NCBI GenBank assembly: GCA_018715695.1
Contig: DVLB01000027.1
Coordinates: 6,728-70,727, forward strand
Length of the DNA stretch: 64,000 bases
Origin: Candidatus Galloscillospira stercoripullorum
Lineage (GTDB): Bacteria; Bacillota; Clostridia; Oscillospirales; Oscillospiraceae
Direction of reading: 5' to 3'
Below, in pieces: positions 50,001 through 64,000 of the stretch. The notes beneath the pieces are model-generated. The model made no database searches and was not told the DNA's origin. It was given only the letters and a program-made list of their open reading frames with translations. A program made the position numbers and the translations under genes. Numbering within the stretch: position 1 is the stretch's first letter; each line of letters opens with the position of its first letter.

Positions 50001-51125
50001 ATGGACAGAAAACTTTTCCGCAGTATCCTGTGGATCATCACTTACGCCGTGCTGCTGGTGCTTTTCATCGTACAGTTTAACGAGCTGCGGGCTCTGGCGG
50101 GCACTGTACTGGGTATCTTTCAGCCGCTGTTCATCGGCTTTGCCATCGCCTTCGTCCTCAACCGCCCCTGCCACATGCTGGCAGTGCTCTATGACCGGGC
50201 ATTGGGAAACACCCGGGCCAAAAAGCTCTCCCGCCCCCTGGCGGTGGGCACCTCCTACCTGATCCTGCTGGTGCTGATCGTGGCCTTCTTCGCCATTGTC
50301 CTGCCCAAGCTGGTGGAGAGCATCACCCTTTTCGTCAACAGCATCAACGGGTACCTTGCCAACCTCCAGACCTGGCTCACCCCCCTGCTGGATCTGCTCA
50401 ATCTGGAGTCCTTCAACCTCTCCAATCTCTCCGAGTGGATTCGTACCGCCCTCAACGGCGTGCTCAACACCCTGACCACCGCGGTACCCCAGATCATCAG
50501 CACCGCCATGGCCGTGGTGTCCATCGTGGTTACCGCTTTCCTGTCCATCATCTTCTCCATCTATATGCTCTCGGGCAAGGAAAAGCTTCTCTCTCAGTGC
50601 AGGCGGGTCCTTCTGGCCTATGTGCCCAAGCGGGTCAACAGCGTGGTCCTGGAGGTGCTCCGCCTCACCGCCGATACCTTCACCGCCTTTGTCACCGGCC
50701 AGCTTTTGGAGGCCTGCATCCTGGGTGGCCTTACCACCGTGGGCATGCTCTTCATTCAGGCCGACTATGCCCCCCTGGTGGGTATCATCGTGGGGGTCAC
50801 CGCTCTGGTGCCTATGATCGGCGCCTTTGTGGGCGGCGCCCTGTCCGCCATTCTGCTGCTCATGGTCTCCCCTATCAAGGCCCTTATCTTCCTCATCTTC
50901 ATTCTCTGCCTCCAGCAATTTGAGGGCAATGTCATTTACCCCAAGGTAGTGGGCTCCTCCATCGGCCTGCCCGCCATCTGGGTGCTCACCGCCGTCACCG
51001 TGGGCGGCGGACTGCTGGACTTTGTGGGCATCCTCATCAGCGTGCCCATCGCCTCGGTGTTCTATACTCTCCTGCGCCGGGACGTCCACAAGCGCCTGGG
51101 AGAGCCCGCCCCCAAGGAGGACTGA
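50001..51125 (+). CDS. AI-2E-family (PerM/YtvI-like) transporter
   Basis: AGGAGGAG lies 7 nt before the ATG at 50001. It has 8 TM segments and an LQQFEGNVIYPKVVG motif. Confidence 0.85.
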   Translation: MDRKLFRSILWIITYAVLLVLFIVQFNELRALAGTVLGIFQPLFIGFAIAFVLNRPCHMLAVLYDRALGNTRAKKLSRPLAVGTSYLILLVLIVAFFAIVLPKLVESITLFVNSINGYLANLQTWLTPLLDLLNLESFNLSNLSEWIRTALNGVLNTLTTAVPQIISTAMAVVSIVVTAFLSIIFSIYMLSGKEKLLSQCRRVLLAYVPKRVNSVVLEVLRLTADTFTAFVTGQLLEACILGGLTTVGMLFIQADYAPLVGIIVGVTALVPMIGAFVGGALSAILLLMVSPIKALIFLIFILCLQQFEGNVIYPKVVGSSIGLPAIWVLTAVTVGGGLLDFVGILISVPIASVFYTLLRRDVHKRLGEPAPKED

Positions 51126-51149
51126 CTCCCCATTTCCCCTCTGAATATC

Positions 51150-51190
51150 AAAGGGCCCGCCGTCTGTTTTGACGGCGGGCCCTTTTCTGT
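51150..51190. terminator. Bidirectional terminator
   Basis: AAAGGGCCCGCCGTC-TGTTTT-GACGGCGGGCCCTTTT. Confidence 0.8.
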
Positions 51191-51215
51191 CTTTCGGTTT
51201 CTCTCAGGCGCAGTC

Positions 51216-51785
51216 TTACCGCATCTGAGCATCCCAGCGCTCCATCGCCTGGCGGAGGATACCCTCCACATCAGCACCCCACACATCCAGTCCCTCTGCC
51301 TGGAGGCACTGGACCTGGGGAATGTGGAAAAACGTATCCGCCAGGGCCTTTATATAGTCATAGCCCAGGTTCTGCCCGCCCATGGGTCCGCCTGAGGTGG
51401 TGACGTAAATCAGCCGCCGCGCCCGGCACAGACCCGCAGGCACACCCTGGTCGTTATAGTGGAAGGTCACCCCGGTCACCGACACCCGCTCCAGATAGGC
51501 CCGCAGGACGGCGGGAAAGGACAGGTCCCAACAGGGGGCGGCGATGAGGATCTGATCCGCCCGGGCAAATTGCCGGGCATAGTCCAGCAGGGGGTCGTCC
51601 AGCGCCCCCGCCTTCACCAGTCGCTCCCGCCGCTCGGCCTCCTCCGCGCTCAAAGGAAGGACCTGCCCCAGGCTCAGGTCCACCTCCTCCGTCCGGCCGC
51701 CCAGCCCCTCCAGTACATGCCGGGCCAGGCGCAGGGTGCGGGACTGGGGTCTGATACAGGCGTTGACAAAGAGAACCTCATCCAT
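51216..51785 (-). CDS. Flavodoxin-fold NAD(P)H-dependent oxidoreductase (azoreductase/ACP-phosphodiesterase-like)
   Basis: Start reassigned to MDEVLFVNAC (ATG at 51785, RBS AGGAAGGAG). It has the pattern of the FMN_red/Flavodoxin_2 family. Confidence 0.75.
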   Translation of the reverse strand: MDEVLFVNACIRPQSRTLRLARHVLEGLGGRTEEVDLSLGQVLPLSAEEAERRERLVKAGALDDPLLDYARQFARADQILIAAPCWDLSFPAVLRAYLERVSVTGVTFHYNDQGVPAGLCRARRLIYVTTSGGPMGGQNLGYDYIKALADTFFHIPQVQCLQAEGLDVWGADVEGILRQAMERWDAQMR

Positions 51786-52014
51786 GGAACATGCTCCTTC
51801 CTGTTCTTCCGTCCTACTTCTAGGGTGGACGGGTATGGGCGGGACGGCTCTGCACGGCAGCTTTTCCTTCCCGGCCTGCTCTGTCCTTTCAGTATACATC
51901 CGATTCATCCGGCAGGACAACCCCATTTCCTCACCACCCGGCAAAGGAGGGATATACAAAAGCGGGGCCGCTGCGCTGGGCTCGCGCGGGGGCCCCAGGA
52001 GCTGGGCGAGGTAA

Positions 52015-52052
52015 AAGGGGCCGCTGCCTTTTGCCCGTGTCCCATAAGGAAA
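52015..52052. other. attL: host hairpin arm (52015-52028) joined to the left terminal repeat of the element
   Basis: AAGGGGCCGCTGCC is the exact reverse complement of 61206-61219. The following TTTTGCCCGTGTCCCATAAGGAAA is an imperfect inverted repeat of the right end. Confidence 0.75.
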
Positions 52053-52091
52053 CCCAAGGACAGGCAGACGGGCGAGTGGTAAATTGAACAG

Positions 52092-52129
52092 AACCGGGGA
52101 CCGGCAAGAAGCTGGTCCCCGGTTTTGTT
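52092..52129. terminator. Hairpin with flanking T tracts near the left end of the element
   Basis: AACCGGGGACC-N11-GGTCCCCGGTT followed by TTGTT on the plus strand. Confidence 0.55.
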
Positions 52130-52410
52130 ATGCTCTGGTCCCTGTGTCTATTGTGGTGTGGTAGCAGACAGACCGAGCAGTGCTGTCCCTCTCGGCCCTG
52201 CCTATCTCACGCCCCGCAGGGCGTCAGAGCGACAGCAATCCCCACGGGGACGAGGCCACAAGTTACCACCACCAACCGGCGGGGGATTGCGAAGGAGCGT
52301 ACCCACCTTATTCCCCGCCTTGCTTACGGCTCCGTCACTTGCCCGGCCTCCGCCCGTGGCGGGCCACCGGCTCCCAGCTTACCGGACAAGCCTCTCTCTG
52401 AACAACAAAA
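52130..52410. other. G+C-rich, stem-dense non-coding block inside the element (candidate structured RNA or single-strand origin)
   Basis: No plausible CDS is present. All three forward frames are open across 52180-52401 but their translations are not protein-like. Stems: 52209-14/52219-24, 52235-43/52282-90 (9 bp), 52294-301/52325-33 and 52350-54/52358-62. Hairpins bracket the block on both sides. Confidence 0.5.
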
Positions 52411-52414
52411 AGCT

Positions 52415-52449
52415 CGGAACACTTGTACGCTCAAGTGTCCGGGCTTTTT
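52415..52449. terminator. Bidirectional terminator downstream of the XRE gene
   Basis: CGGAACACTTG-TACGCT-CAAGTGTCCG with AAAAAGC on the left and GGCTTTTT on the right. Confidence 0.7.
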
Positions 52450-52759
52450 ATGTCTTTTCATTCATGGCTTTCATAATTTCTAATACTGCCATTTTTTGCC
52501 GAGACGTTAGATTTGCCCATTGACGGAATACTGCATCCAGTTCCGGGGTCAGCTCCACCATTTCCCCCTCTGCAAAGAACTGTGAAAGTGTTATTCCAAA
52601 CCCTTTGCAAATTGCTTCTAAAGTGGAGACCGAAGGAATGGTATTGCGCTTATAGATATTTGCTATTGTGGCATGGGACAAGTTGCTGTTTTTTGCCAGA
52701 CGATAGGTTGTCCATCCTTGACTTTCCAACAGCTGGTGTAGCCTTTCCAGAACATCCAT
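52448..52759 (-). CDS. XRE-family helix-turn-helix transcriptional regulator (element repressor candidate)
   Basis: WTTYRLAKNSNLSHATIANIYKRNTIPSVSTLEAICKGFGITLSQFF is a classic XRE HTH. It is divergent from the cargo operon. Confidence 0.88.
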   Translation of the reverse strand: MDVLERLHQLLESQGWTTYRLAKNSNLSHATIANIYKRNTIPSVSTLEAICKGFGITLSQFFAEGEMVELTPELDAVFRQWANLTSRQKMAVLEIMKAMNEKT

Positions 52760-52905
52760 ACTTTCAACACCATCCTTTTGTAGCTATTTTATCGTTAAGC
52801 TTGATGGTATTATATGAAAGTATTGTAACTATATTATTGTTATGTTAGAATATAATTCGAGCAGCACAGCGAGAGTGCGAATGAAAGCTTGAAAGGACTG
52901 ATATT
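52760..52905. promoter_or_regulatory. A+T-rich divergent promoter/operator region
   Basis: Plus strand: TTGTAA, a 17-nt spacer, then TAGAAT at about 52823-52851. ATTGTWA half-sites are repeated (ATTGTAAC, ATTGTTAT). Confidence 0.5.
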
Positions 52906-53505
52906 ATGAGTAACCAAAGCGGCGGCTGGGATACCGCCATTGAGACCCAGAACTACACCCCCAGCGGAGGGGCGGCCCCGCAAAAGGGCGCAAGTATCTT
53001 GGTTGACCAGAGCGAGAGCATTGTGTCCACCATCGGCAGCAACTATTTGCAAAATTTCCTTTCCGGCGGCACGGTGTCGAAGGGCGTAGGCGTCCTGACC
53101 CAGAGGCGATTTTACTACAAGGGCAGGAATTTCAGCGGTTCGGGTAAAGATATGAAAGTAACCACTGAGGAAGGGGTCGTATCTATTGAGGATATTACCT
53201 TCAGCAATTTTTCTTACACAAGAAACATTGGTGCCTTGGTTGTAGGCTTACTGCTGGCTGTTGTAGGTGCTTTTTGTACTCTTTTTTTAGGCGGCTACGG
53301 CAGCATCGGCGGACTTGGACTGTTAGGAGTTGCTGCTTTCCTGTTGGTCAATTTTTTTGTCAGTCGAAAATCTCTTTTTATCGTTTCCTTCCCCGGCGGC
53401 AGTTTTGGTTTTGACATTCGTTATTACCCCATTTCCGACATTCGGGACTTCCAGCGGCAGCTTCACCTATTAAAAGACCACCGCAAGGAGGACGGGAACC
53501 TATGA
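52906..53505 (+). CDS. Membrane protein, paralog 1 (PH-like beta domain interrupted by a TM hairpin)
   Basis: GVLTQRRFYYKGR...EDITF, then two TM helices, then LFIVSFPGGSFGFDIRYYPISDIRDFQRQLHLL. A purine-rich stretch (AAAGGA) lies 8 nt upstream of the ATG. Confidence 0.75.
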   Translation: MSNQSGGWDTAIETQNYTPSGGAAPQKGASILVDQSESIVSTIGSNYLQNFLSGGTVSKGVGVLTQRRFYYKGRNFSGSGKDMKVTTEEGVVSIEDITFSNFSYTRNIGALVVGLLLAVVGAFCTLFLGGYGSIGGLGLLGVAAFLLVNFFVSRKSLFIVSFPGGSFGFDIRYYPISDIRDFQRQLHLLKDHRKEDGNL

Positions 53506-54266
53506 GGGAACAGTACCCCTTTTTCCGGGAGGAGGACGAGCGCACCCGGGCGGTCATCGGCGCGGACGCTGCGGAAGCGGATCTGGGCGGAGAATATCAA
53601 AAACCCTACGCTATTCTTACCCAGAAGCGGCTCTACTGTAAGAACGAAGCAGGAAATTTTATTACACAGTCTGCTGACCTGCGGGGAGTGGGCAAAAGTT
53701 TTCCACCTGAGCTAACACAATGGTTTTGGGCAGAAGTAGTTTGTATGGTATTGCTCGTTTGTATGGTCATCTTCTATCATTTTGCTCCGTGGGGGCATAA
53801 CAATTTGAATGATTATTATAGTGCAGTCGGCTCTCTCGCTCAAATGCCTGCATCTGCTTATTTTGACCTGCTTGTGTCTGTTCTTTTGTGCCTCGAATGT
53901 GTTATCGCCTATATATTTATTTTTCAGAAAAGTTTTACAGCAGCTCATCGGCTGGTGTCGGTAGCTATAATAACAGCTCTGGCGTATAGCATTTTTTTAT
54001 GCAGTAAAAGACTTCTTGACCATTCCCTTACTGGTTGGATAGGGGTTAGTTTTGATGATGTTTTTTTACCGCTTATGTCCCTCGTAGCGATTATATCTTT
54101 TGTGTTGTCTGTTATAAATAGTTGGCATAGCAAAAGAAATGTTACCTTTCAAATTACCCACAACGCCGGCGCCTTTTCCTTTAACCCCAGACTGTATTCC
54201 TCTGCCGAGCTGAAACACTTTGCAGCCCAGGTTAAGACCCTAAAAGCAGGTGACGCAAATGGGTAA
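53502..54266 (+). CDS. Membrane protein, paralog 2 (same split architecture, larger TM block)
   Basis: ATGA overlap with paralog 1. YAILTQKRLYCKNEAG, then about 5 TM helices, then VTFQITHNAGAFSFNPRLYSSAELKHFAAQVKTL. Confidence 0.75.
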   Translation: MREQYPFFREEDERTRAVIGADAAEADLGGEYQKPYAILTQKRLYCKNEAGNFITQSADLRGVGKSFPPELTQWFWAEVVCMVLLVCMVIFYHFAPWGHNNLNDYYSAVGSLAQMPASAYFDLLVSVLLCLECVIAYIFIFQKSFTAAHRLVSVAIITALAYSIFLCSKRLLDHSLTGWIGVSFDDVFLPLMSLVAIISFVLSVINSWHSKRNVTFQITHNAGAFSFNPRLYSSAELKHFAAQVKTLKAGDANG

Positions 54267-54798
54267 TAACCCCGGTTTTCTGCTCGGCGGTGCCTCTTGC
54301 TCCGCTGTCCTTACCGCCGAAACCGTCACCCTCAGCGGGAACTATTACCGCTATGACATTCACAAACGGCGCAAGGTGTCCGGGACTGTCACGGTGGACT
54401 TGCTCAATGTGCTTCGGGTGGGGCTTACCAAAACCTATTCCCGCCTAATGCTGGCCGTCCCAATGTGTTTCGGTTTCGCCGCTTTAGGCATCAAGGCCAT
54501 TCCCTCTGTCGAGGTAAAAAAGACCCTTTTGGAAATTCCAGATGTTTGGAGCTTCTCCCCTGGCGTTACATTCTGGAGCCTGCCCCACCAGGATTTCCTG
54601 TGGAAGCTGTGCGCCGTGCTGTGCCTGCTCACCATCCCCCTGTACTGGTTGAGCTACCGCAACGATTTGGAGGTCAACACCACCCAGGGCCGCTATCTGC
54701 TGCCCCAGAAAGGAATGGACGCGGCACAGATCGCCAGCTTCCAGCGAGAGTTTACGCAAGCAAAAATAGCTCGACAGAAGCAGAGCAAGCGTATATAA
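54250..54798 (+). CDS. Membrane protein, paralog 3 (same split architecture)
   Basis: 17-nt overlap with paralog 2. AVLTAETVTLSGNYYRY, then TM helices, then LEVNTTQGRYLLPQKGMDAAQIASFQREFTQ. Confidence 0.7.
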   Translation: MTQMGNNPGFLLGGASCSAVLTAETVTLSGNYYRYDIHKRRKVSGTVTVDLLNVLRVGLTKTYSRLMLAVPMCFGFAALGIKAIPSVEVKKTLLEIPDVWSFSPGVTFWSLPHQDFLWKLCAVLCLLTIPLYWLSYRNDLEVNTTQGRYLLPQKGMDAAQIASFQREFTQAKIARQKQSKRI

Positions 54799-54807
54799 TT
54801 CAAAAAG

Positions 54808-54843
54808 GCGGACGGTCAAAGGGCCGTCCGCCACTTGTTTTTG
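54808..54843 (+). terminator. Terminator after the three-gene membrane cassette
   Basis: GGCGGACGG-N8-CCGTCCGCC followed by ACTTGTTTTT. Confidence 0.7.
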
Positions 54844-54855
54844 AGGAGAGGTTAT

Positions 54856-55902
54856 ATGAAAAAAGGCTCCAAAAAGATGCGTCCAGAAATTAAGCAGCCG
54901 ATTTATTATGAAATAGACTGGGGTCGAGCTGGTGTACACTATATCCCGTTGAATAACGGCACCTTTGGCCTAAGTGACATAACCGACGGAATAAAGCATC
55001 TGTTAGAGGACCACAGCTATAAAATATCTGATTTGGTAAAGGCATTTGTTTCCTGGAAAGAAAAGAACGGTTTATTGGTGCAGGACGTACCTAGTGAGGA
55101 TACAAGTCTAAGGCGCTATCTTAACAATAAAATCGTTATGCCAATGGAGGTGATGATTGATGTGTTTTGCGTTTTAGATAACTTGGGTAAGCAACTCCCG
55201 GAAGAAGAATCTGTTAAATATTTTGAAACGCTTTGCAAATTGCATAAAATGGCGGCTCAATACCAGTGGGAAACGAATTATTTTAACGAAAAACTTGAGA
55301 ATCTTCTTGAACAGCTAAATGAGTTAGATGCTGATGATATTATCCGTTTTTTGCGGTCTTTTGAATTACTGTCACTGGGGGAAGAAACTTGGTGTTTCTG
55401 GCTTTGTTATGCTACATTGCCTAGAGAAATGAGGGAAGAAACTGAACAGGTCTTATGCCGGTGTACGACACCGCATACATTCCATCGGTTGTTCTCCCGA
55501 TATCATTTCTATGCAGAGGAAGCCCATGTACTGGACGAAAAAATACTGAGAGCGAAAAGGGCTGCCCAGGAAAATCAAGAGGCGCTGAAAAAGCGCCTGG
55601 TCAGCATGGCTCGGGAAACATTTAACAGAGTTCCTAAAACCGATAGCGCCCTAAAACGAATATGTGAGATTATCAATTTGGCACTTCATTTAGACAGTGG
55701 CGATTGGATGGTGCTGCTAATGTATGAGTACACGGAAGATTGCAAATCCGCCATAGAGTTTGTATTGTCAGCTATGGAGACCCCAACCAATTACAAAAGT
55801 AAATGTCCGGAAGAAGTGGTGCGCTCCTTCAAAGAACGTCTTGTCGAACAGGTAGACCGGCGAGAGCAAGCAGAGTTAGAAATGATGTTTTTGGATGATT
55901 AA
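54856..55902 (+). CDS. Cytoplasmic all-helical protein with a degenerate XRE-like HTH near the N-terminus (hypothetical regulator)
   Basis: GAGGAGAGG lies 5 nt before the ATG at 54856. SLRRYLNNKIVMPMEVMIDVFCVL resembles the second half of an XRE HTH. It occupies the most A+T-rich stretch of the window. Confidence 0.7.
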   Translation: MKKGSKKMRPEIKQPIYYEIDWGRAGVHYIPLNNGTFGLSDITDGIKHLLEDHSYKISDLVKAFVSWKEKNGLLVQDVPSEDTSLRRYLNNKIVMPMEVMIDVFCVLDNLGKQLPEEESVKYFETLCKLHKMAAQYQWETNYFNEKLENLLEQLNELDADDIIRFLRSFELLSLGEETWCFWLCYATLPREMREETEQVLCRCTTPHTFHRLFSRYHFYAEEAHVLDEKILRAKRAAQENQEALKKRLVSMARETFNRVPKTDSALKRICEIINLALHLDSGDWMVLLMYEYTEDCKSAIEFVLSAMETPTNYKSKCPEEVVRSFKERLVEQVDRREQAELEMMFLDD

Positions 55903-55925
55903 GCGTAAGTAAATACCCATAAAAA

Positions 55926-55961
55926 CGGCTGGTGTTCAAAAGATGACACCAGCCGCTTTTA
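55926..55961 (+). terminator. Terminator after the helical-protein gene
   Basis: CGGCTGGTGT-N10-ACACCAGCCG followed by CTTTT. Confidence 0.65.
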
Positions 55962-56119
55962 TCAGCAATAATGCGGACAGTACAAATGATTGTTGCTTTT
56001 GACGATGTTTTTTACTTATGGCAGAATATCATCATAGGGACGCCTATTTGAAATATAGCCGCCGCCTTTGGGGTCGCGACCTGGGGGACGGTGGACACAA
56101 TTAAGAAGAAGGTAATACC

Positions 56120-56497
56120 ATGGCAAAATTCAATATTTCTTTGACCTGTGAACAGGCAACCGGTACCGCTACCCCCTTTCTTGTCGGGGTGTCGGAGGAC
56201 TGGGAATGGATAGATGGCCCGGACGGTAAGCGCCATCCCGGCTCTACGATTGGGACCCGTTACACCGTCCTCATGCTCCAGAGCGAGTGTGCCCCGCTGG
56301 TCGTGAAGACCCCGGAGACCACCCCGGCCGTGAGCGCCGAGGAAGTGGCTGCGGCCTGTTTGTCCGGAAATTTTATCCGGGTCCGATTCGAGGGTTTCAC
56401 GGCCAGCCCCTACCAGGGCAGGAACGGCCTGGGCATCAGCGCCAACGCTGAGAAGTGCATGGTCGTGACCCCTGCGGCTAACACTTCCAAGACCTAA
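56120..56497 (+). CDS. Small soluble protein (hypothetical), first gene of the transfer/replication block
   Basis: 125-aa ORF with a moderate RBS (GAAGAAGG). It looks beta-rich and no family was recognised. Confidence 0.6.
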   Translation: MAKFNISLTCEQATGTATPFLVGVSEDWEWIDGPDGKRHPGSTIGTRYTVLMLQSECAPLVVKTPETTPAVSAEEVAAACLSGNFIRVRFEGFTASPYQGRNGLGISANAEKCMVVTPAANTSKT

Positions 56498-56541
56498 CCA
56501 ACTCATAACCAGCGGCCCCGGCAGGGTCGGGGCCGCCCTCA

Positions 56542-57336
56542 TTGTTAATAAAGGAGATGAATACTATTAAAACTTTAATTGCTTTCTTTGCTGCGCTTGC
56601 ATCTCCGCTGATCAGTCAGTGGACCAAGTGTGGCCAAGCCATTGAGGACCGGGACCCCCTGGGGGCTGTGTTTCATTTCCTCCTGGTGGTCCTTTATATC
56701 GGTGGGCTGAGCGCCGCTGCCTGCGGGCTTGTGGCTCTGGTCTGCGAGTTCTGGTTTTATCTGATTATCCCCATCCTTATCGTCTGGCTTATCCTGTATT
56801 ATGCCGGGAAGAAGCCACAGACCCCGCCTCCCCCGCCTCCACCTCCCCCGCCTCCGGGGATTGAGGAAGTGCGTGCCCGGGCGGAGCGGGCTTATCCGCT
56901 CATGCAGCAGGCAGTTTATCTCCTGTTTACTGACCTGTGCCGCTACCTGCCCGGCCTTGTGTCCCCCTTTTCCCTGTCGGCGGTGACAGCCCCGGTGAAT
57001 TTTGACATTACCGCCAGCCTCGTCACAAGGTTTCACTTTGTACTCTCCAAAGGCCAGTGCAGCGCACCCGTCAGTGATGTAAAGGATATCCTGGACAACA
57101 TTATCTTCCAGCGTCTCCGTGTCCAGGACCTGCCCATCTCTATTCCGGCTATTTACACTGCGGCGGACGGCAGCACCTGGCCCGGGTTGGTTGTGGACGG
57201 TGTCTTTGACTTGGGCAATCAGTACCGGGTGGATTTGGTCATCACCAACGAGGCCGAGGTGGCCGCCCTCCGGGCCAAGGGCCTATCCTGGTCCGAGGAC
57301 GACGAGGCCGCCGACCCCCAGGACCCGGACCTTTAA
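56542..57336 (+). CDS. Membrane protein with a 12-residue polyproline tract (hypothetical)
   Basis: Three N-terminal TM helices, PPPPPPPPPPPP, a soluble C-terminal domain and an acidic tail. The start is ambiguous (TTG 56542 or ATG 56557). Confidence 0.65.
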   Translation: MLIKEMNTIKTLIAFFAALASPLISQWTKCGQAIEDRDPLGAVFHFLLVVLYIGGLSAAACGLVALVCEFWFYLIIPILIVWLILYYAGKKPQTPPPPPPPPPPPGIEEVRARAERAYPLMQQAVYLLFTDLCRYLPGLVSPFSLSAVTAPVNFDITASLVTRFHFVLSKGQCSAPVSDVKDILDNIIFQRLRVQDLPISIPAIYTAADGSTWPGLVVDGVFDLGNQYRVDLVITNEAEVAALRAKGLSWSEDDEAADPQDPDL

Positions 57337-57341
57337 TCGTC

Positions 57342-58058
57342 ATGCTGATTGGATATGAGTATAACGCCTACCGGCTGGGTGTGGCGCTGGGGGTCCACTG
57401 GACCCCTGGCCCCACGGCCCCGCCCCATTGGCTGGTCGTTGGTCCAAGCGGAACGGGGAAAACGGTGTTTTCTGGCCAGCTTGCAGCCCGCATGGTGCTG
57501 CGGGAAAATGCCCGTCTGTGGATAGTCAACTACAAGGACGATGATTTTTTCCAATTTCTCCAAGAGGTACAGGGGCGGTATTACCGATTCCGGGACGCGG
57601 CCAACGGCATACGGGATTTTTATACCGTCCTGGAGAACAGGCTGGGTGGAGACCCGGACCGCTCCCTATGCCTGCTGTGGGTGGACGAGCTGGCAGCTAT
57701 GGTAACGGGCCTGGACAAGAAGGAGGGGGAACTTGCGAAGTCCGCTGTGGCCTCCATCCTCCAAACCGGCCGCTCCCTCAACTGTCAGCTGCTGGTCAGC
57801 GTCCAGCGGGCGGACAGCGCTTACTTCAACAACGGAGCGAGAGAGAATTTTGGGAATGTGGTGTTCCTGGGTCCCAATATCACAAAGGAGGCAGCGGGGA
57901 TGTTTGGGATAGACCGGGCAGCTCTGCCCTCTGTGACCGGGCGGGCAGGATACTACATCGTCAACGGCAACAGCGAAGCAATCCGCCCCATCCAGTGCCC
58001 CATCATCAAGGACACCGCCAAGCTGAAAGAGGCCCTTTCGTTGGGGTTGACGAGGTGA
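57342..58058 (+). CDS. Short FtsK/SpoIIIE-family DNA-translocase-like ATPase
   Basis: Walker A GPSGTGKT, Walker B LLWVDELA, and TGRSLNCQLLVSVQRAD, which matches the FtsK QRP-type motif. Confidence 0.8.
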   Translation: MLIGYEYNAYRLGVALGVHWTPGPTAPPHWLVVGPSGTGKTVFSGQLAARMVLRENARLWIVNYKDDDFFQFLQEVQGRYYRFRDAANGIRDFYTVLENRLGGDPDRSLCLLWVDELAAMVTGLDKKEGELAKSAVASILQTGRSLNCQLLVSVQRADSAYFNNGARENFGNVVFLGPNITKEAAGMFGIDRAALPSVTGRAGYYIVNGNSEAIRPIQCPIIKDTAKLKEALSLGLTR

Positions 58059-58120
58059 CAAGCTGGGAGCGGCGGCGGAGCCGTAGGCGGAAGCCGCCGC
58101 TCCTGTTAACTTGATTCTTT

Positions 58121-59059
58121 ATGAACATTAGCAGAATGGCAAAACATGAGCGCCCACAGCCCAGGGACGATGTAACGGTAAAAGAGTGCGCAAACCTTGT
58201 TGAAGTGCGGTACAGCGTGAATACTCCCCCGGAAACGGTCATTCAAAAACTGACAGCAGACCTATACCTGGACAAACGGACGGGAGAAGTCAAGGCTTTC
58301 CGGCACACGGAAAACCGGGCAGAAGACAAGTCCAGCGTGGCGCAAAGTCTGTGCAGGCTGCGGGACCTCATCAACACCAATGTGACAGACCCGGACTGGG
58401 TTCTATGGGTAACGCTGACCTACCGGGAAAATATGCGTGACCCCTCCCGGCTGTATGAGGACTTCCGCCGCTACCGGCAGCGACTAAACTACTACCTGGA
58501 CAAACGGGGCCAGCCGAAATGTGAATACATAGCGGCAGCAGAGCCACAGGGCCGTGGGGCGTGGCACCTCCATTTGCTGCTCCTGTTTCCCGACAAGGCC
58601 CCATTCATTCCCAACACTGAAATGGCCCGTCTGTGGGGGCAGGGATTTACCAAGACCAAGAGCCTAAAGGGCGTGGATAACCCGGGCCTCTATCTGACCG
58701 CCTATCTGGGCGACATGGAACTGACCGAGGCGGTGACGGCTGGACAGTTCCAAGCGGCCCACATCCAGGAGAAGGCAGCGGGGAAAGCGGTGGTAAAAGG
58801 GGCGAGGCTACGGCTGTACCCCAGCGGATTCAACTTGTATCGCTGTTCCAGAGGGGTGAAGCGGCCACAAGTCATACAGATGACCGAGGGAGAGGCCCGC
58901 CAAGTCATCAGGGACGCCCCTCTTGTCTATGAAAAAACCATAGCGGTCTTGAATAACGAGGGTGAGACAGTGAACATCATCAACTACCGCCAGTACAACC
59001 GAGCCAGGGTCGAGGAAGAAACCGCCCCCGCCGTGGCATCAGGAAAGACAGAGGCATGA
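58121..59059 (+). CDS. HUH-type rolling-circle replication initiator / relaxase
   Basis: Motif order WVTLTY (motif 1), GAWHLHLLLLF (HUH) and GLYLTAYLGD (Tyr motif). Confidence 0.75.
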   Translation: MNISRMAKHERPQPRDDVTVKECANLVEVRYSVNTPPETVIQKLTADLYLDKRTGEVKAFRHTENRAEDKSSVAQSLCRLRDLINTNVTDPDWVLWVTLTYRENMRDPSRLYEDFRRYRQRLNYYLDKRGQPKCEYIAAAEPQGRGAWHLHLLLLFPDKAPFIPNTEMARLWGQGFTKTKSLKGVDNPGLYLTAYLGDMELTEAVTAGQFQAAHIQEKAAGKAVVKGARLRLYPSGFNLYRCSRGVKRPQVIQMTEGEARQVIRDAPLVYEKTIAVLNNEGETVNIINYRQYNRARVEEETAPAVASGKTEA

Positions 59060-59203
59060 GCTGTCCGGGAGACACCCAAAGAATAAAATCCGGCGGCAAG
59101 CGCCGCCCACCACTAACCCCATACAGATAGCCGTCGCAACGGCAACCGCTAAAAAGGAAATATCCTCCATATCAAGTAAAGGGTAAAACAAGGAGGCAGA
59201 ACT

Positions 59204-59398
59204 ATGAGTGACCAACAAGAACAAGACCGGGTATTGGTCGTGACCCCCATTATTTTTAAGGAGATAAGCGGGACGATATACGGCGTCTATGGCTATTTCA
59301 GCCCGGAGGCAAAGGAAACAGCGAGGGAGAAAATCAGACGGCTTTTGACGAAGGAGCCAGAGAGCAAAACACGGAAGAAAGTTGCAAAAATCATATAA
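59204..59398 (+). CDS. Small basic-tailed protein (hypothetical; possible recombination directionality factor)
   Basis: A strong RBS (AAGGAGG) lies 7 nt before the ATG. The 64-aa ORF sits immediately upstream of the recombinase. Confidence 0.6.
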   Translation: MSDQQEQDRVLVVTPIIFKEISGTIYGVYGYFSPEAKETAREKIRRLLTKEPESKTRKKVAKII

Positions 59399-59479
59399 AA
59401 TGCTGTACTTTTAGGCAGAAATAAGGTATAATATAGACATACCACAAGCCCGTTCTGCCACACAAAGGAGGTTAATTTC

Positions 59480-61144
59480 ATGTGGCAGTACGATACAATC
59501 AAAGGCAAATTTATCCCCGGCGAACTTCCCGCCGACGGTGCAAAAATCACTGCTTGCTATGACCGGCTGAGCCAGGAGGACGAGCAGGAGGGGGACAGCG
59601 GGTCCGTCGTTAATCAGCGGGACTTCCTGCGGAAATACTGCGTAGAGCATCATTTCCTCAATGTGCGGCACTTCTCAGACGATGGCTATACTGGGACGAA
59701 TTTTGACCGGCCCGGTTTCCAGGAGATGATGGACCTGGTGGAGCAGGGCCGTGTCTCCGCCGTCATTGTCAAGGACCATTCCCGGCTGGGTCGTAACCGC
59801 CTTCTGGTGGGCGCTCTCATGGAGCGGTTCACGGAGGATTACGGGGTGCGATATATCGCTGTGACGGACAACATCGACAGCGCAAAGGGCCTGGACGATA
59901 TGACGGCAGTGCGGGAGTTGTTTAATGAGTTTTACCCCCGTGACACCTCCAAGAAAATACGGGCGGTGTTCACCAGCAAGGGCAACAGCGGACAGAGGTT
60001 GTGTACTCAGGTCCCCTATGGCTACAAGGGCAATAAATACGGCTGGGAGGTAGACGAGGAAGCGGCCCAGGTGGTGCAAGAGATATTCAGCCTGTGTATG
60101 GCAGGGTTGGGTCCCATGCAGATCGCCAAGCGGCTGAAAACGGCGGGGGTGCTGACCCCCACGGCGTACAAGCTGGAAAAGGGCCTGTCCGTTACCCATA
60201 AGCCGACAGCGGACCCTTGCGGCTGGGACCATCGGGCGGTAGTGAAAATCCTGGAGCGCATGGAATACCTAGGCTGTACGGTGAACTTCAAGACCCGGAA
60301 GAAGTCATACAAGTCTAAAAAGACGCTGTACCTCCCCAAAGAGGAATGGAAGGTATTTCCCGACACTCACCCAGCTATTATAGACCAGGAAACATGGAAA
60401 CGGGTCCAGGAGCTGCGGAAGCACAAGCGCCGTCCCACTAAAGCGGGCAAGCGGGGTTTGTTCTCCGGGCTGGCCTATTGCGCCGACTGCATGAGCAAGC
60501 TGTATTTCTCCACCCACAAGGGGTCCACAGAGGACCAGGACCACTATGTATGCGCCAACTACAAGAGCAACACGGGCAGCTGCACCATCCACTATATCCG
60601 GGAAAAGGTACTGTCTGCCCTGGTGCTGGCCCACCTGCAAGCCACCCTTGCCTATGTCCAGGCGGACGAGGACGCTTTTACCCGTCTGGTGATGGAAAAG
60701 GACGCCCAGGAGCAGCGGCGGGATTTAGCCCGAAAGAAAGCAGAGCTGACCAAGGCGGAGAAGCGGGGCATGGAACTGGACGGGCTTTTCCAGCGGGTCT
60801 ATGAGGACCACGCCCTGGGTAAGCTGACAGAGGAGCGGTACAACCGCCTCTCCAGATCTTACGAGGCCGAACAGAGAGAGCTGGAGGCCAGAGTGGAAGA
60901 ACTGCGGCGGGACCTGGAAAAAGGCCAGGAGGAGGCCGTAAATGTGGCCCAATTCGTGGCGCTGGTGAAGAAATACACGGAGGTCCGGGAACTGACGCCC
61001 ACTATCGTCAATGAGTTTATCAAGATGGTGATTGTTCACGCTCCATCGAAGGTCAACGGCAGACGATTCCAGGCGGTGCAGGTCGTTTATAATCTGGTGG
61101 GTGAGGTCACGATACCCGACACCCAGAACAGAGAAACGGCGTAA
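59480..61144 (+). CDS. Large serine recombinase (TnpX/TndX-like)
   Basis: The N-terminal resolvase domain has the catalytic-Ser context ACYDRLSQED and VIVKDHSRLGRN. It also has a recombinase domain, a Cys-rich zinc ribbon (CADC...CANYKSNTGSC) and a coiled-coil C-terminus. Confidence 0.92.
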   Translation: MWQYDTIKGKFIPGELPADGAKITACYDRLSQEDEQEGDSGSVVNQRDFLRKYCVEHHFLNVRHFSDDGYTGTNFDRPGFQEMMDLVEQGRVSAVIVKDHSRLGRNRLLVGALMERFTEDYGVRYIAVTDNIDSAKGLDDMTAVRELFNEFYPRDTSKKIRAVFTSKGNSGQRLCTQVPYGYKGNKYGWEVDEEAAQVVQEIFSLCMAGLGPMQIAKRLKTAGVLTPTAYKLEKGLSVTHKPTADPCGWDHRAVVKILERMEYLGCTVNFKTRKKSYKSKKTLYLPKEEWKVFPDTHPAIIDQETWKRVQELRKHKRRPTKAGKRGLFSGLAYCADCMSKLYFSTHKGSTEDQDHYVCANYKSNTGSCTIHYIREKVLSALVLAHLQATLAYVQADEDAFTRLVMEKDAQEQRRDLARKKAELTKAEKRGMELDGLFQRVYEDHALGKLTEERYNRLSRSYEAEQRELEARVEELRRDLEKGQEEAVNVAQFVALVKKYTEVRELTPTIVNEFIKMVIVHAPSKVNGRRFQAVQVVYNLVGEVTIPDTQNRETA

Positions 61145-61181
61145 CCCCGTAAGGTTACGCCGTTCTCTCCAAATATTGATA

Positions 61182-61219
61182 CTTCTTTATGGGACATGAC
61201 CCTTTGGCAGCGGCCCCTT
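61182..61219. other. attR: right terminal repeat of the element joined to a host hairpin arm (61206-61219)
   Basis: The reverse complement of 61182-61205, AAAGGGTCATGTCCCATAAAGAAG, pairs with the left end. GGCAGCGGCCCCTT is the exact complement of 52015-52028. Confidence 0.75.
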
Positions 61220-61235
61220 GTGGTATTGGGGAAGA

Positions 61236-62606
<1,371 letters not shown>

Positions 62607-62677
62607 TCACGCCCGCCGGGATCATATGGTAAGGGCCCCTTTCTCTCGATGGAGTGCCAAGGCCCGGATACCCGCTT

Positions 62678-64000
62678 TCAGTTGCAGATAAGGGTGCTGC
62701 CGTCCATCTCTTCCGGCTTGTTGAGGCCCATCAGGTCCAGCATGGTGGGGGCGATGTCGGCCAGGCGGCCGTCGCGCAGCTTCACGCTGGCGCCCACGAT
62801 GCAGAAGGGCACGGGGTTGGTGGTGTGGGCGGTATAGGGGGTAATGCCGTCGTCCTCCACCATGCGCTCGGCGTTGCCATGGTCGGCGGTGATCAGGGCC
62901 ACGCCACCCATCTTCCGGGTGGCCTCCACCACCTTGCCTACGCACTCGTCCACCGTCTCAACGGCCAGGCGAGCGGCCTCGTACACACCGGTGTGGCCCA
63001 CCATGTCGCAGTTGGCGAAGTTGAGGATGATCACGTCGTACTCGCCGCTCTCGATGCGCTTTACCGCCTCGTCGGCCACCTCCACGGCGCTCATGGCGGG
63101 CTGGAGGTCGTAGGTGGGCACCTTGGGAGAGGGGATGAGGCAGCGGTCCTCCCCAGGGAAGACCTGCTCCACGCCGCCGTTGAAGAAGAAGGTGACATGG
63201 GCGTACTTCTCGGTCTCGGCGATGCGCAGCTGGGTCAGGCCCAGCTTGGAGACATACTCCCCGAAGGTGTTGTGCAGCTCGTGATGGGGGAAGGCCACGG
63301 TCACACCCGGCATGGTGGCGTCATACTCGGTGGTGCAGACGAACTGGACGCTCTGGAAGCCGTTTTTCCGCTCCACGTCGGTGAAATCGCTATCCACAAA
63401 GCACCGGGTGATCTCCCGTGCACGGTCAGGCCGGAAGTTGAAGAAGATGATGCTATCCCCCTCGCTGACCTTGGCGTTCCGCTCGCAGACCACGGGCACC
63501 ACAAACTCGTCGGTGACCTCGGCGTCATAGGACTTCTGCACCGCCGCCACAGGGTCGTCGCACTTGACACCCTCGCCGCAGGCGATGGCATCGTAGGCCT
63601 TCTGCACCCGGTCCCAGCGCTTGTCCCGGTCCATGGCGTAGTAGCGTCCCATGACGGTGGCGATGGTGCCCACGCCGATCTCCCGGCACTTCTCTACGAG
63701 TTCGGCCACGAAGGCCTTGCCCGAGGCGGGCGGCACGTCCCGGCCATCCAGGAAGCAGTGGATGAACACCTTCTTGAGGCCCCGCTCCTTGGCCATCTTC
63801 AGCAGGGCATAGAGGTGGGTGTTGTGGCTGTGGACGCCGCCGTCGCTCAGAAGACCCATCAGGTGGAGGGCGGTACCCTTCTCCTTGCAGGCGTCCATGG
63901 CGGCGATATAGGCGGGGTTTGCGAAGAAATCCCCGTCGGCAATGGCCTTGGAGATGCGGGGCAGGTCCTGGAACACCACCCGGCCGGCGCCGATGTTGGT
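62678..64000 (-). CDS. gpmI: 2,3-bisphosphoglycerate-independent phosphoglycerate mutase; N-terminus lies right of the window
   Basis: LLSDGGVHSH and ADHGNAE motifs. The frame remains open to the window edge. Confidence 0.92.
   Translation of the reverse strand, partial: TNIGAGRVVFQDLPRISKAIADGDFFANPAYIAAMDACKEKGTALHLMGLLSDGGVHSHNTHLYALLKMAKERGLKKVFIHCFLDGRDVPPASGKAFVAELVEKCREIGVGTIATVMGRYYAMDRDKRWDRVQKAYDAIACGEGVKCDDPVAAVQKSYDAEVTDEFVVPVVCERNAKVSEGDSIIFFNFRPDRAREITRCFVDSDFTDVERKNGFQSVQFVCTTEYDATMPGVTVAFPHHELHNTFGEYVSKLGLTQLRIAETEKYAHVTFFFNGGVEQVFPGEDRCLIPSPKVPTYDLQPAMSAVEVADEAVKRIESGEYDVIILNFANCDMVGHTGVYEAARLAVETVDECVGKVVEATRKMGGVALITADHGNAERMVEDDGITPYTAHTTNPVPFCIVGASVKLRDGRLADIAPTMLDLMGLNKPEEMDGSTLICN

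Follow-up and report, generated by a model that had tools for sequence, protein, structure and literature searches.

In the 64,000-nt stretch of Candidatus Galloscillospira stercoripullorum contig DVLB01000027.1 that was analysed here (the window), two exactly complementary arms of a terminator-like hairpin behind the enolase gene, eno, lie 9 kb apart. What separates them, how did it come to stand between them, and what kind of enzyme would choose such a site? The explanation that fits best as a whole is that the intervening DNA, 52029-61205 (~9.18 kb with ten open reading frames, ORFs), is an integrative mobilizable element (IME) of an Oscillospiraceae gut bacterium, which was inserted by its own TnpX/TndX-like serine recombinase, an enzyme that targets terminator-like hairpins generically. 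We regard this explanation as very probable.

An element in the loop of the eno terminator

The junctions of the element and the host features around them are the following (L numbers denote loci outside the window).

52015 to 52028, plus strand: host arm of the eno terminator hairpin, eno-distal (descending in eno sense), then a T-run in eno sense; reverse complement of 61206-61219, with the two arms adjacent in the empty sites L001 and L004
52029 to 52032, plus strand: TTTT of the left junction, which holds the deduced TT crossover at 52030-52031 (N12 rule); each of the two junctions has this dinucleotide, 12 nt away from the TTAT/ATAA motifs that are conserved in the ends
52032 to 52053, plus strand: left element end, attP P' half-site TGCCCGTGTCCC-ATAAGGAAAC; imperfect inverted repeat of the right end; this left end is also found next to at least four further hairpin arms of host DNA (L067, L069, L070, L071)
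61181 to 61202, plus strand: right element end, attP P half-site ACTTCTTTAT-GGGACATGACCC; in L059-L062 an identical end adjoins another host arm
61203 to 61205, plus strand: TTT of the right junction, which holds the deduced TT crossover at 61203-61204
61206 to 61219, plus strand: host arm of the eno terminator hairpin, eno-proximal (ascending in eno sense); exact reverse complement of 52015-52028, placed by the empty-site alignment
61236 to 62537, minus strand: eno (enolase), the gene whose terminator is split (PF00113, 5e-131; PF03952, 2e-61; the identical protein is named phosphopyruvate hydratase)
51216 to 51959, minus strand: flavodoxin-fold/FMN-reductase gene (PF02525, 3.6e-20), first host gene beyond the eno terminator, directly after eno in L001

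The initial annotation of this DNA had described the arms at 52015-52028 (AAGGGGCCGCTGCC) and 61206-61219 (GGCAGCGGCCCCTT) as exact reverse complements of 14 nt. They are, and the 14-mer has just these two copies in the window (chance expectation 0.14 at up to 1 mismatch). A repeat finder stretches the pair to 37 nt with 78% complementarity, which comprises the host arms together with the imperfect element ends that have TGTCCCATAA in common. Sixteen nucleotides lie between the eno stop codon and the first arm. The G+C content of the element interior (9.18 kb) is 52.5%, compared with 64.2% in the remaining window, which agrees with the A+T-rich interior described earlier. Alone, a 14-nt inverted pair 9 kb apart is unremarkable within 64 kb; the deciding evidence is the empty site.

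Such a site had been predicted for relatives, between eno and the flavodoxin-fold gene. An exact-protein look-up yielded contigs that encode the identical Eno protein and have the flavodoxin-fold gene directly after eno, and the empty site is present there (L001, L004), so that the proposed test came out positive. With 52029-61205 removed, the window aligns to the metagenome contig L001 with 99.79% identity across 3,323 nt; gaps occur only at the 3-nt loop and at a GTT indel within the T-run. The readable junctions and this empty site bear out the earlier proposal that the insertion of a serine-recombinase element has split the intrinsic terminator of eno at its loop.

The empty site of the Eno-identical contigs has the sequence GGGGCCGCTGCC-TTT/AAA-GGCAGCGGCCCC-GTTTTTT, and L001 and L004 read ...CCACAAGGGGCCGCTGCC-TTT-GGCAGCGGCCCCGTTTTTTACC... 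in eno sense. Its perfect stem has 12 bp (14 at the arms in the window) and is followed, after a 3-nt loop and the second arm, by GUUUUUU; the hairpin starts 16 nt past the eno stop, and the RNA fold of 85 nt around it has a minimum free energy of −38.5 kcal/mol. On its stem, loop, U-tract and placement, the eno empty site is a canonical predicted intrinsic terminator. The initial annotation had expected a 14-bp stem with a TT(T) loop to result from removal of 52029-61205. The hairpin is indeed there; the exact deletion leaves no loop, and the stem of the empty site is the shorter one given above. The Ts of the loop belong to the crossover region, which is common to host and element. There are four Ts at the left junction, three at the right one and three in the empty sites. 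The sequences across the occupied junctions, in eno sense, are GCTGCC-AAA-GGGTCATG and CACGGGC-AAAA-GGCAGC.

Three further contigs (L003, L005, L006) contain the same empty site with the loop flipped to AAA. Judging by the junction sequences, the orientation of the insertion in the window is the one that corresponds to this AAA-loop allele. The same relation between loop and orientation recurs independently in two other hosts that have an element in the eno terminator: in L016 the reconstructed loop is AAT in eno sense and the recombinase end lies beside eno, and in L071 the eno-proximal arm is followed by A[TT] in eno sense and the end with the XRE-type regulator gene lies beside eno.

An alternative without any insertion, in which the arms are the terminal inverted repeats of the element itself or the 9 kb are ancestral and the empty form is a deletion, would account for perfect inverted repeats at the region ends and is next to inconceivable: the arms are not part of the element because the empty sites retain them in the form of a complete canonical terminator, these element ends adjoin different arms at other loci, the composition is foreign, and a precise deletion restoring a perfect hairpin is what excision by a recombinase would yield.

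The element ends had been read as imperfect inverted attP half-sites, and this description stands, with TGTCCCATAA as their common core. They align with a 1-nt offset unless the Ts are split as N12-[TT]-N12. Relatives from a genome scan (identity at least ~48%) have the common end architecture ...ACTTCCTTAT-N12-[core]-N12-ATAAGGAAGT..., and in 13 elements one and the same dinucleotide is found at both junctions, 12 nt from the TTAT/ATAA motifs. Such junctions appear consistent with conservative recombination at a 2-nt core, without target duplication, and with an attP of ~50 bp that has imperfect dyad symmetry. A subterminal inverted repeat lies inside the left end (52033-52043 and 52058-52073, GCCCGTGTCC and GGACAGGCAGACGGGC); in the predicted fold of the plus strand, this repeat and the host arm combine into a strong hairpin. 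A comparable hairpin (CGTCCCCTCCAC-TTCCTTAT-GTGAAGGGGACG) is seen in Lachnospiraceae relatives, where it lies at the recombinase end. These subterminal hairpin repeats may be accessory recombinase sites.

The host DNA around the terminator has further repeats. A perfect 16-nt inverted repeat flanks it (51997-52012 and 61279-61294): one copy, AGGAGCTGGGCGAGGT, is located within the 3' end of the eno coding sequence and its complement, ACCTCGCCCAGCTCCT, immediately past the terminator T-run. This repeat is present in the empty site L001 too, and we estimate that ~0.02 such pairs are expected by chance per 13 kb. About 25 nt past the eno terminator, a second G+C-rich hairpin-like palindrome (51962-52000), followed by GCTTTTG in eno sense (GGGGCCCCCGCGCGAGCCCAGCGCAGCGGCCCC), reuses the GGGGCCGCTGC motif and may be a tandem terminator. 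In two of the contigs with the AAA loop the sequence diverges ~70 nt after the terminator (L003 4400-4563, L006 3404-3545), continues with ~100 nt of unrelated sequence and then repeats the last ~55 nt of eno and the start of the terminator; L005 stops exactly at the divergence point. The repeat is a local duplication, the footprint of another element or an assembly effect of a strain mixture.

The recombinase and its other target hairpins

The gene adjoining the right junction encodes the enzyme that is expected to have made the insertion.

59480 to 61144, plus strand: large serine recombinase of 554 aa, TnpX/TndX-like with C-terminal DUF4368 (PF00239, PF07508, PF13408, PF14287); the ORF ends 61 nt from the junction, as had been pointed out initially

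The resolvase catalytic domain (PF00239, 9e-19) spans residues 25-167, the Recombinase (PF07508, 1.2e-22) and zinc-ribbon (PF13408, 4.9e-13) domains follow C-terminally, and DUF4368 (PF14287, 3.4e-21) covers residues 479-543. The closest solved structure is the catalytic domain of TnpX from Tn4451 (2MHC, 8e-31), in which YERLSRDD aligns to the YDRLSQED segment of our protein; SPbeta recombinase structures are also matched (5e-14). The 90% cluster of the protein has 373 members, Flavonifractor plautii among them. Recombinases with DUF4368 and 43% identity were also found in plasmid records (H3-H7), on large plasmids of Salmonella, Klebsiella, Enterobacter and Citrobacter, so that the clade also occurs on plasmid records of Proteobacteria.

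The same enzyme is found at other hairpins. In L059-L062 an identical 554-aa recombinase and an identical right end are joined to [TT]GTGCCGGGGGCCTCTTCTGTTCTGTTT ([TT]GTGCCGGGGGCCTCTTCTG) at the 3' end of a gene for a 798-aa protein. Among elements with an identical XRE protein, the left end of the window element recurs next to [AA]CGGGCCGGCCCCTGTTTTG, [AA]TGGCTCCGCCCGTTTTG and [AA]TGCCCGGGGGTCTTTCTTG, and a fourth such element (L071) has a near-identical left end in the eno terminator of another species, in the opposite orientation. A T-run follows most of these four further arms (L067, L069, L070, L071). The recombinase of the F. plautii type (P0005, identical protein) is likewise located at two sites: in most contigs it lies inside an element that encodes a type IV secretion system (T4SS), and in L078 it lies in AAAAACCGCCCCCCGGCG[CA]GGCCGGGGGGCGGTTTTT, a perfect palindrome of 17 bp that resembles a bidirectional terminator. 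The elements in the T4SS-encoding DNA (L072-L077, L079) are 8.6 kb long and their recombinase is 91% identical to that of the window; the larger conjugative element around them encodes TrbL_2, PrgI, a VirB4-like ATPase, NlpC/P60, a relaxase and DNA methyltransferases. The F. plautii-type relative is an IME nested in a potential helper. The 22-mer of the left end had 0 matches in the first metagenome scan.

Since an identical recombinase occurs at a second hairpin, the enzyme is multi-targeting and not a single-site integrase of the phage type. Of the serine integrase proposed in the initial annotation, the serine recombinase is retained and the single-site phage type is replaced by a multi-targeting TnpX/TndX-like enzyme with DUF4368. 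A classical integrase specific for the eno terminator, the other hairpins being coincidental, would agree with the three different hosts that have an element in this very terminator (the window, L016, L071). It would have to accommodate an identical recombinase with an identical end at a second, different hairpin, near-identical ends at three more, the identical F. plautii-type protein at two sites and a domain, DUF4368, that marks a multi-targeting clade. We consider it highly improbable.

The preference for terminator-like hairpins extends to more distant relatives. Using the N12-[core]-N12 end rule, we reconstructed 13 independent attB sites of relatives with 48-99% identity. At 12/13 of them the core dinucleotide lies in the apical loop of a terminator-like minimum-free-energy hairpin, and perfect stems of at least 11 bp are centred on the core at 8/13, compared with a background of 3.9e-4 per position (133,271 host positions). 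Examples are AAAAAGCCCCCGCCG[TA]CGGCGGGGGCTTTT (L009), GCGCCCCCGCCGG[AC]CTGGCGGGGGCGC (L011) and AAAAAGAATGCGCG[AA]GCGCATTCTTTTT (L027). The core is TT in the window element and CA, TA, AC, AA or GA in relatives.

In the Lachnospiraceae clade, a metagenome scan with the 22-nt right end found 28 contigs with 19 distinct flanks, all with the core AA. When metagenome and genome loci are taken together, a T-run begins 4-12 nt after the core in 28/34 distinct flanks, as against 6.8% of background positions. Most sites with called genes adjoin the 3' end of a gene. A naive ORF-based test agrees on gene 3' ends and suggests that many sites lie between convergent genes; it is indicative at most, as it is confused by spurious antisense ORFs in high-G+C DNA (for example 61218-62837 opposite eno). 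Two proposed elements, L042 and L056, were rejected as chance matches with wrong geometry or A+T-rich pseudo-ends, and an unreliable 3-kb reconstruction, L104, was set aside. On balance, and with modest confidence, we favour the view that a whole clade of elements with DUF4368 recombinases, found at least in Oscillospiraceae and Lachnospiraceae, uses terminator hairpins as generic landing pads that are cut in the loop, that the loop dinucleotide sets the orientation and that elements of the Oscillospiraceae clade bring inward replacement terminators at both ends.

Gene content and the fate of eno termination

Besides the recombinase gene, the element contains the following features.

52092 to 52132, plus strand: inward terminator-like hairpin ~62 nt inside the left end, with a 14-bp stem and a 5-nt loop, then TTGTTATG; position conserved with differing stems in L007/L078, L009, L011 and L013
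52133 to 52416, no strand: G+C-rich non-coding stretch without an Rfam match, whose fold is no better than that of shuffled sequences (z = −1.2); ~270 nt of it are missing from L071
52448 to 52759, minus strand: XRE/Cro-C1-type helix-turn-helix regulator (PF13443, 2.6e-9; PF01381, 8.7e-8) with a terminator-like hairpin of its own at 52417-52440 (minus strand); the identical protein occurs in 182 blocks of the assembly collection
52906 to 54798, plus strand: three ORFs (199, 254 and 182 aa) whose hydrophobic stretches suggest membrane proteins, cargo or of unknown function (no Pfam, NCBIfam, PHROG or PADLOC match)
54835 to 55902, plus strand: ORF for a 355-aa protein, located where the A+T content of the element peaks (40-43% G+C; no family matched in Pfam, NCBIfam, PHROG or PADLOC)
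56120 to 57336, plus strand: a 125-aa ORF, and a 264-aa ORF that is hydrophobic in its N-terminal part and contains a poly-Pro run (no Pfam, NCBIfam or PHROG match)
57342 to 58058, plus strand: P-loop ATPase of 238 aa, putative FtsK/TcpA-type coupling protein (PHROG 1358, FtsK/SpoIIIE-like, 4.4e-8; sub-threshold TraB, CedB and AAA_10; P-loop of TrwB in the PDB)
58121 to 59059, plus strand: rolling-circle replication initiator Rep, putative relaxase (PF23343 REP_ORF2-G2P, 4.7e-21; PHROG 3419, 2.1e-17; cluster members are named rolling circle replication-associated protein)
59204 to 59398, plus strand: TnpW-family protein of 64 aa (PF14202, 2.5e-9) at the spot expected for an excisionase or directionality factor; kept upstream of the recombinase in relatives
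61134 to 61165, minus strand: inward terminator-like hairpin ~40 nt inside the right end, with a 12-14-bp stem, then UUUCUCUGUUCU in eno sense, directly after the recombinase stop; offset conserved in relatives

A Rep protein and a putative FtsK-like ATPase together with an integrase, without matches to T4SS families among the ten ORFs (Pfam, NCBIfam, PHROGs), correspond to the genes expected of an IME. What TnpW, Rep and the ATPase would do during excision and transfer is deduced from gene order and the literature. The gene order is also like the rep-xis-int order of integrative and conjugative elements of actinomycetes (AICEs), but the host is a member of the Clostridia, and the similarities to TraB (3.4e-4; 19 bits at a cut-off of 800) and RepSA (2.8e-3; 17 bits at a cut-off of 34) are far below or below threshold. 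The match of the ATPase to PADLOC mad8 is at the level of the P-loop and was disregarded; PADLOC otherwise returned nothing on the cargo ORFs. ORFs of 124 aa and 253 aa are found in the F. plautii-type relative (L072-L079) at the positions of the 125-aa and 264-aa ORFs, a likeness by size and gene order alone. The G+C content is lowest in the region of the 355-aa ORF (54750-55750), which suggests a separately acquired cargo gene.

Could the element be an integrated filamentous-phage-like or satellite virus, in which Rep, ATPase and membrane proteins serve virion morphogenesis? Rep does match PF23343 (ORF2/G2P) and rolling-circle PHROGs of phages, several putative membrane ORFs lie beside the P-loop ATPase, and a size of ~9 kb would fit. 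However, capsid, coat, terminase and Zot-type (Zot/pI) families were not matched by the element ORFs in Pfam, NCBIfam and PHROGs, and the best match of the ATPase is FtsK/SpoIIIE-like with weak similarity to TraB, CedB and TrwB. Megablast against plasmid and phage records gave no match to the whole element, and no phage record shares DNA with it. The order of ATPase, Rep, small protein and integrase is that of IMEs and AICEs, and the relative nested in a T4SS-encoding element also speaks against a phage. We therefore judge the viral alternative very unlikely and retain the IME.

The left part of the element may contain sequences for replication or transfer. The G+C-rich non-coding stretch could be an origin or oriT region, and a 37-nt inverted repeat with 70% complementarity connects it (52344-52380) to the DNA just upstream of rep (58060-58096; also 52322-52334 and 58076-58088); these repeats may serve as binding sites for Rep, as an origin or as oriT. 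With permissive settings, an Rfam scan of 51000-62000 returned just three sub-threshold chance matches. The left-end region is variable among relatives: ~270 nt (~52130-52400) are absent from the otherwise similar L071 element, and in L063-L066 and L068 the left end is swapped for a different A+T-rich sequence that is followed by genes for an HD-domain protein and a small acid-soluble spore protein, which are element cargo or host flank.

Relatives of the Oscillospiraceae clade have kept inward hairpins at either end; both are present at conserved offsets, with differing stems, in L007/L078, L009, L011 and L013, and several relatives of the Lachnospiraceae clade have kept the recombinase-end hairpin, followed by TTTTT. 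The initial annotation had concluded that the insertion leaves eno without its terminator. This is probably not the case, since a transcript from eno would meet, ~40 nt into the element, a hairpin of 12-14 bp with UUUCUCUGUUCU after it: 61134-61165 is a candidate replacement terminator, with which eno probably retains a terminator. The two inward hairpins probably replace the split terminator and insulate the element from read-through of host transcription.

Target recognition and known systems

How could one recombinase accept hairpins of such different sequence? When the eleven half-sites of the window-type enzyme are read outward from the core, G8 is found in 11/11, G2 and C12 in 10/11, and C10 and C11 in 9/11, followed by T-rich sequence. 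Both halves of attP fit the half-site pattern found in the attB arms. A half-site consensus that is common to attP and attB argues for a degenerate duplex half-site which is read by a symmetric dimer, and a palindromic stem provides two copies of it. The earlier suggestion that a palindromic terminator supplies the dyad symmetry for such a dimer fits the data and can be generalised to many other hairpins.

The integration might proceed as follows. Dimers of the recombinase would bind attP, ACTTCTTTAT-GGGACATGACCC-[TT]-TGCCCGTGTCCC-ATAAGGAAAC, and the host site, where the two arms of the eno intrinsic terminator would be the half-sites. A cut with a 2-nt stagger and strand exchange would take place at the TT in the hairpin loop. 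Because the arms form a perfect palindrome, the orientation of the insertion would be set by the loop dinucleotide alone (TT or AA). The enzyme accepts many G+C-rich, dyad-symmetric, terminator-like hairpins whose half-site is roughly T-G-G-C-N-G-N-G-N-C-C-C-N-T-T from the core. Among sequences of this shape, intrinsic terminators are the commonest, and as they lie outside coding sequence they are abundant landing sites of low cost. After excision, which TnpW might assist, the circle would carry the attP junction GGGACATGACCC-TT(TT)-GCCCGTGTCCC and could serve the rolling-circle Rep as a substrate for replication or nicking, after which the FtsK/TcpA-like ATPase would pass it on to the conjugation pore that a conjugative element in the same cell provides.

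It is also conceivable that the recombinase recognises a structure instead of a duplex sequence, either an extruded cruciform or a hairpin on DNA that is single-stranded during replication or conjugation. Whereas stem sequences vary widely across the sites, the core keeps its place in the loop, and recognition of structure would explain why unrelated stems are all struck exactly in the loop. Perfect palindromes of 11-17 bp can extrude under supercoiling. Serine recombinases, on the other hand, work as dimers on duplex sites. The degenerate sequence motif common to attP and attB half-sites also argues against a purely structural signal, as do the poor hairpins among the natural sites (L013 and the site in the integrative and conjugative element of L007). 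Moreover, Cp36, a member of the clade, is reported to integrate at A-rich/AA/T-rich sites in human chromatin (PMC10083194). Taken together, recognition of structure seems unlikely to us, and recognition of a duplex half-site with dyad symmetry is preferred.

Several observations weigh against the reading of the element as a mobile IME with generic terminator targets. Some of the half-sites in the consensus come from eno sites and are not independent, the hairpin of the L013 site (core GA) is unconvincing, and a few Lachnospiraceae flanks have no T-run. The seven Ts at the junctions (4+3), compared with 3 in the empty sites, need an attP with four Ts or an ancestral loop with four. All three contigs with the AAA allele break or diverge ~70 nt downstream, so that an assembly effect on the allele is possible. 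The assignment of the ATPase is weak, with every Pfam and NCBIfam match under the curated cut-offs, and the terminator function of the host and inward hairpins is a prediction from sequence. The circular attP junction was not found in viral contigs or in the loci examined; mobility therefore rests on presence/absence and on multi-site polymorphism between genomes.

As a TnpX-like serine-recombinase IME, the element itself is of a known sort; what is added are the terminator-loop targets across hosts and the inward terminators in the closer relatives. Our literature searches found no paper that links DUF4368-type recombinases to terminators, and terminator-loop targeting by this recombinase lineage is apparently undescribed. 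The name IME_Rho_tet was considered as an earlier report of terminator targeting and discarded: "Rho" abbreviates Roseburia hominis, and the targets of those elements are MAFF2 ORFs. If generic terminator targeting is true, it would explain how small mobilizable elements can reach many genera of gut Clostridia and leave genes intact, with hundreds of conserved sites available per genome. It would give a biological meaning to "multi-targeting" and to the published A-rich/AA/T-rich motif, and would cast a new light on the "relaxed specificity" of the multi-targeting serine recombinases now under development for genome engineering. A design rule would follow, dyad-symmetric arms plus a loop dinucleotide that dictates orientation, which might guide insertions into safe harbours of bacterial genomes. 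One would also expect host transcripts, in this case that of enolase, to be affected locally at their 3' ends.

The closest known systems are the clostridial elements Tn4451/Tn4453 (TnpX) and Tn5397 (TndX), which DUF4368-type large serine recombinases move. Their recombinases have the same domain set, that of Tn4451 provides the closest solved catalytic domain, and a TnpW homologue is adjacent. As for Tn4451 and Tn5397, the junctions of the window element are consistent with a 2-nt crossover without target duplication, and the protein of the window element is found at several target sites. Tn4451 is mobilised by the Mob protein TnpZ, whereas the window element has Rep and an FtsK-like ATPase; the targets of the window element are the loops of terminator hairpins, and we found no such report for Tn4451 or Tn5397. 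The crossover dinucleotide of TnpX and TndX is GA, in contrast to the TT of the window element and the CA, TA, AC, AA and GA of its relatives. GA is a property of Tn4451 and Tn5397 and not of the whole clade, because TT and AA are reported by Durrant et al. (2022; PMC10083194).

In that study the DUF4368 clade of large serine recombinases is multi-targeting, one protein being found at many attB sites. The core is TT or AA with A-rich 5' and T-rich 3' flanks, and Cp36 is active on duplex DNA in human cells (PMC10083194). The pattern is treated there as a relaxed sequence motif, and the main text contains none of the words terminator, hairpin and palindrome. The A-rich/AA/T-rich pattern of the multi-targeting clade with Cp36 is also seen in our Lachnospiraceae relatives. 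The difference is that the natural sites described here are stem-loops with the core in the loop, and that in high-G+C hosts the G+C-rich stem carries the half-site positions.

With respect to gene content, the element is similar to the firmicute IMEs described by Guedon et al. (2017; PMC5704250), which have a relaxase of the rolling-circle replication type and a TcpA-type coupling protein. The likeness consists in an integrase with a Rep-like protein and a putative FtsK-related ATPase, no T4SS genes, a size of ~9 kb and a relative nested in a conjugative element. The window element differs from them in that its ATPase is short (238 aa) and weakly FtsK/TcpA-like, and its mobilisation is a prediction from its genes. 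The streptococcal IMEs described so far mostly target 3' or 5' ends of specific genes, whereas the window element targets terminator loops.

Terminators or palindromes are also the targets of class C group II introns, of IS1397 and ISKpn1, which insert into the loops of repetitive extragenic palindromes (REP) and bacterial interspersed mosaic elements (BIME), and of Tn7, which uses the glmS terminator. All of them, like the window element, land in or just after a stem-loop, a kind of site that is neutral, abundant and conserved. They do so by different means: the introns by retrohoming with a ribozyme and a reverse transcriptase, the insertion sequences with DDE transposases and Tn7 by TnsD recognition of glmS, in contrast to the conservative cut in the loop that a serine recombinase would make here.

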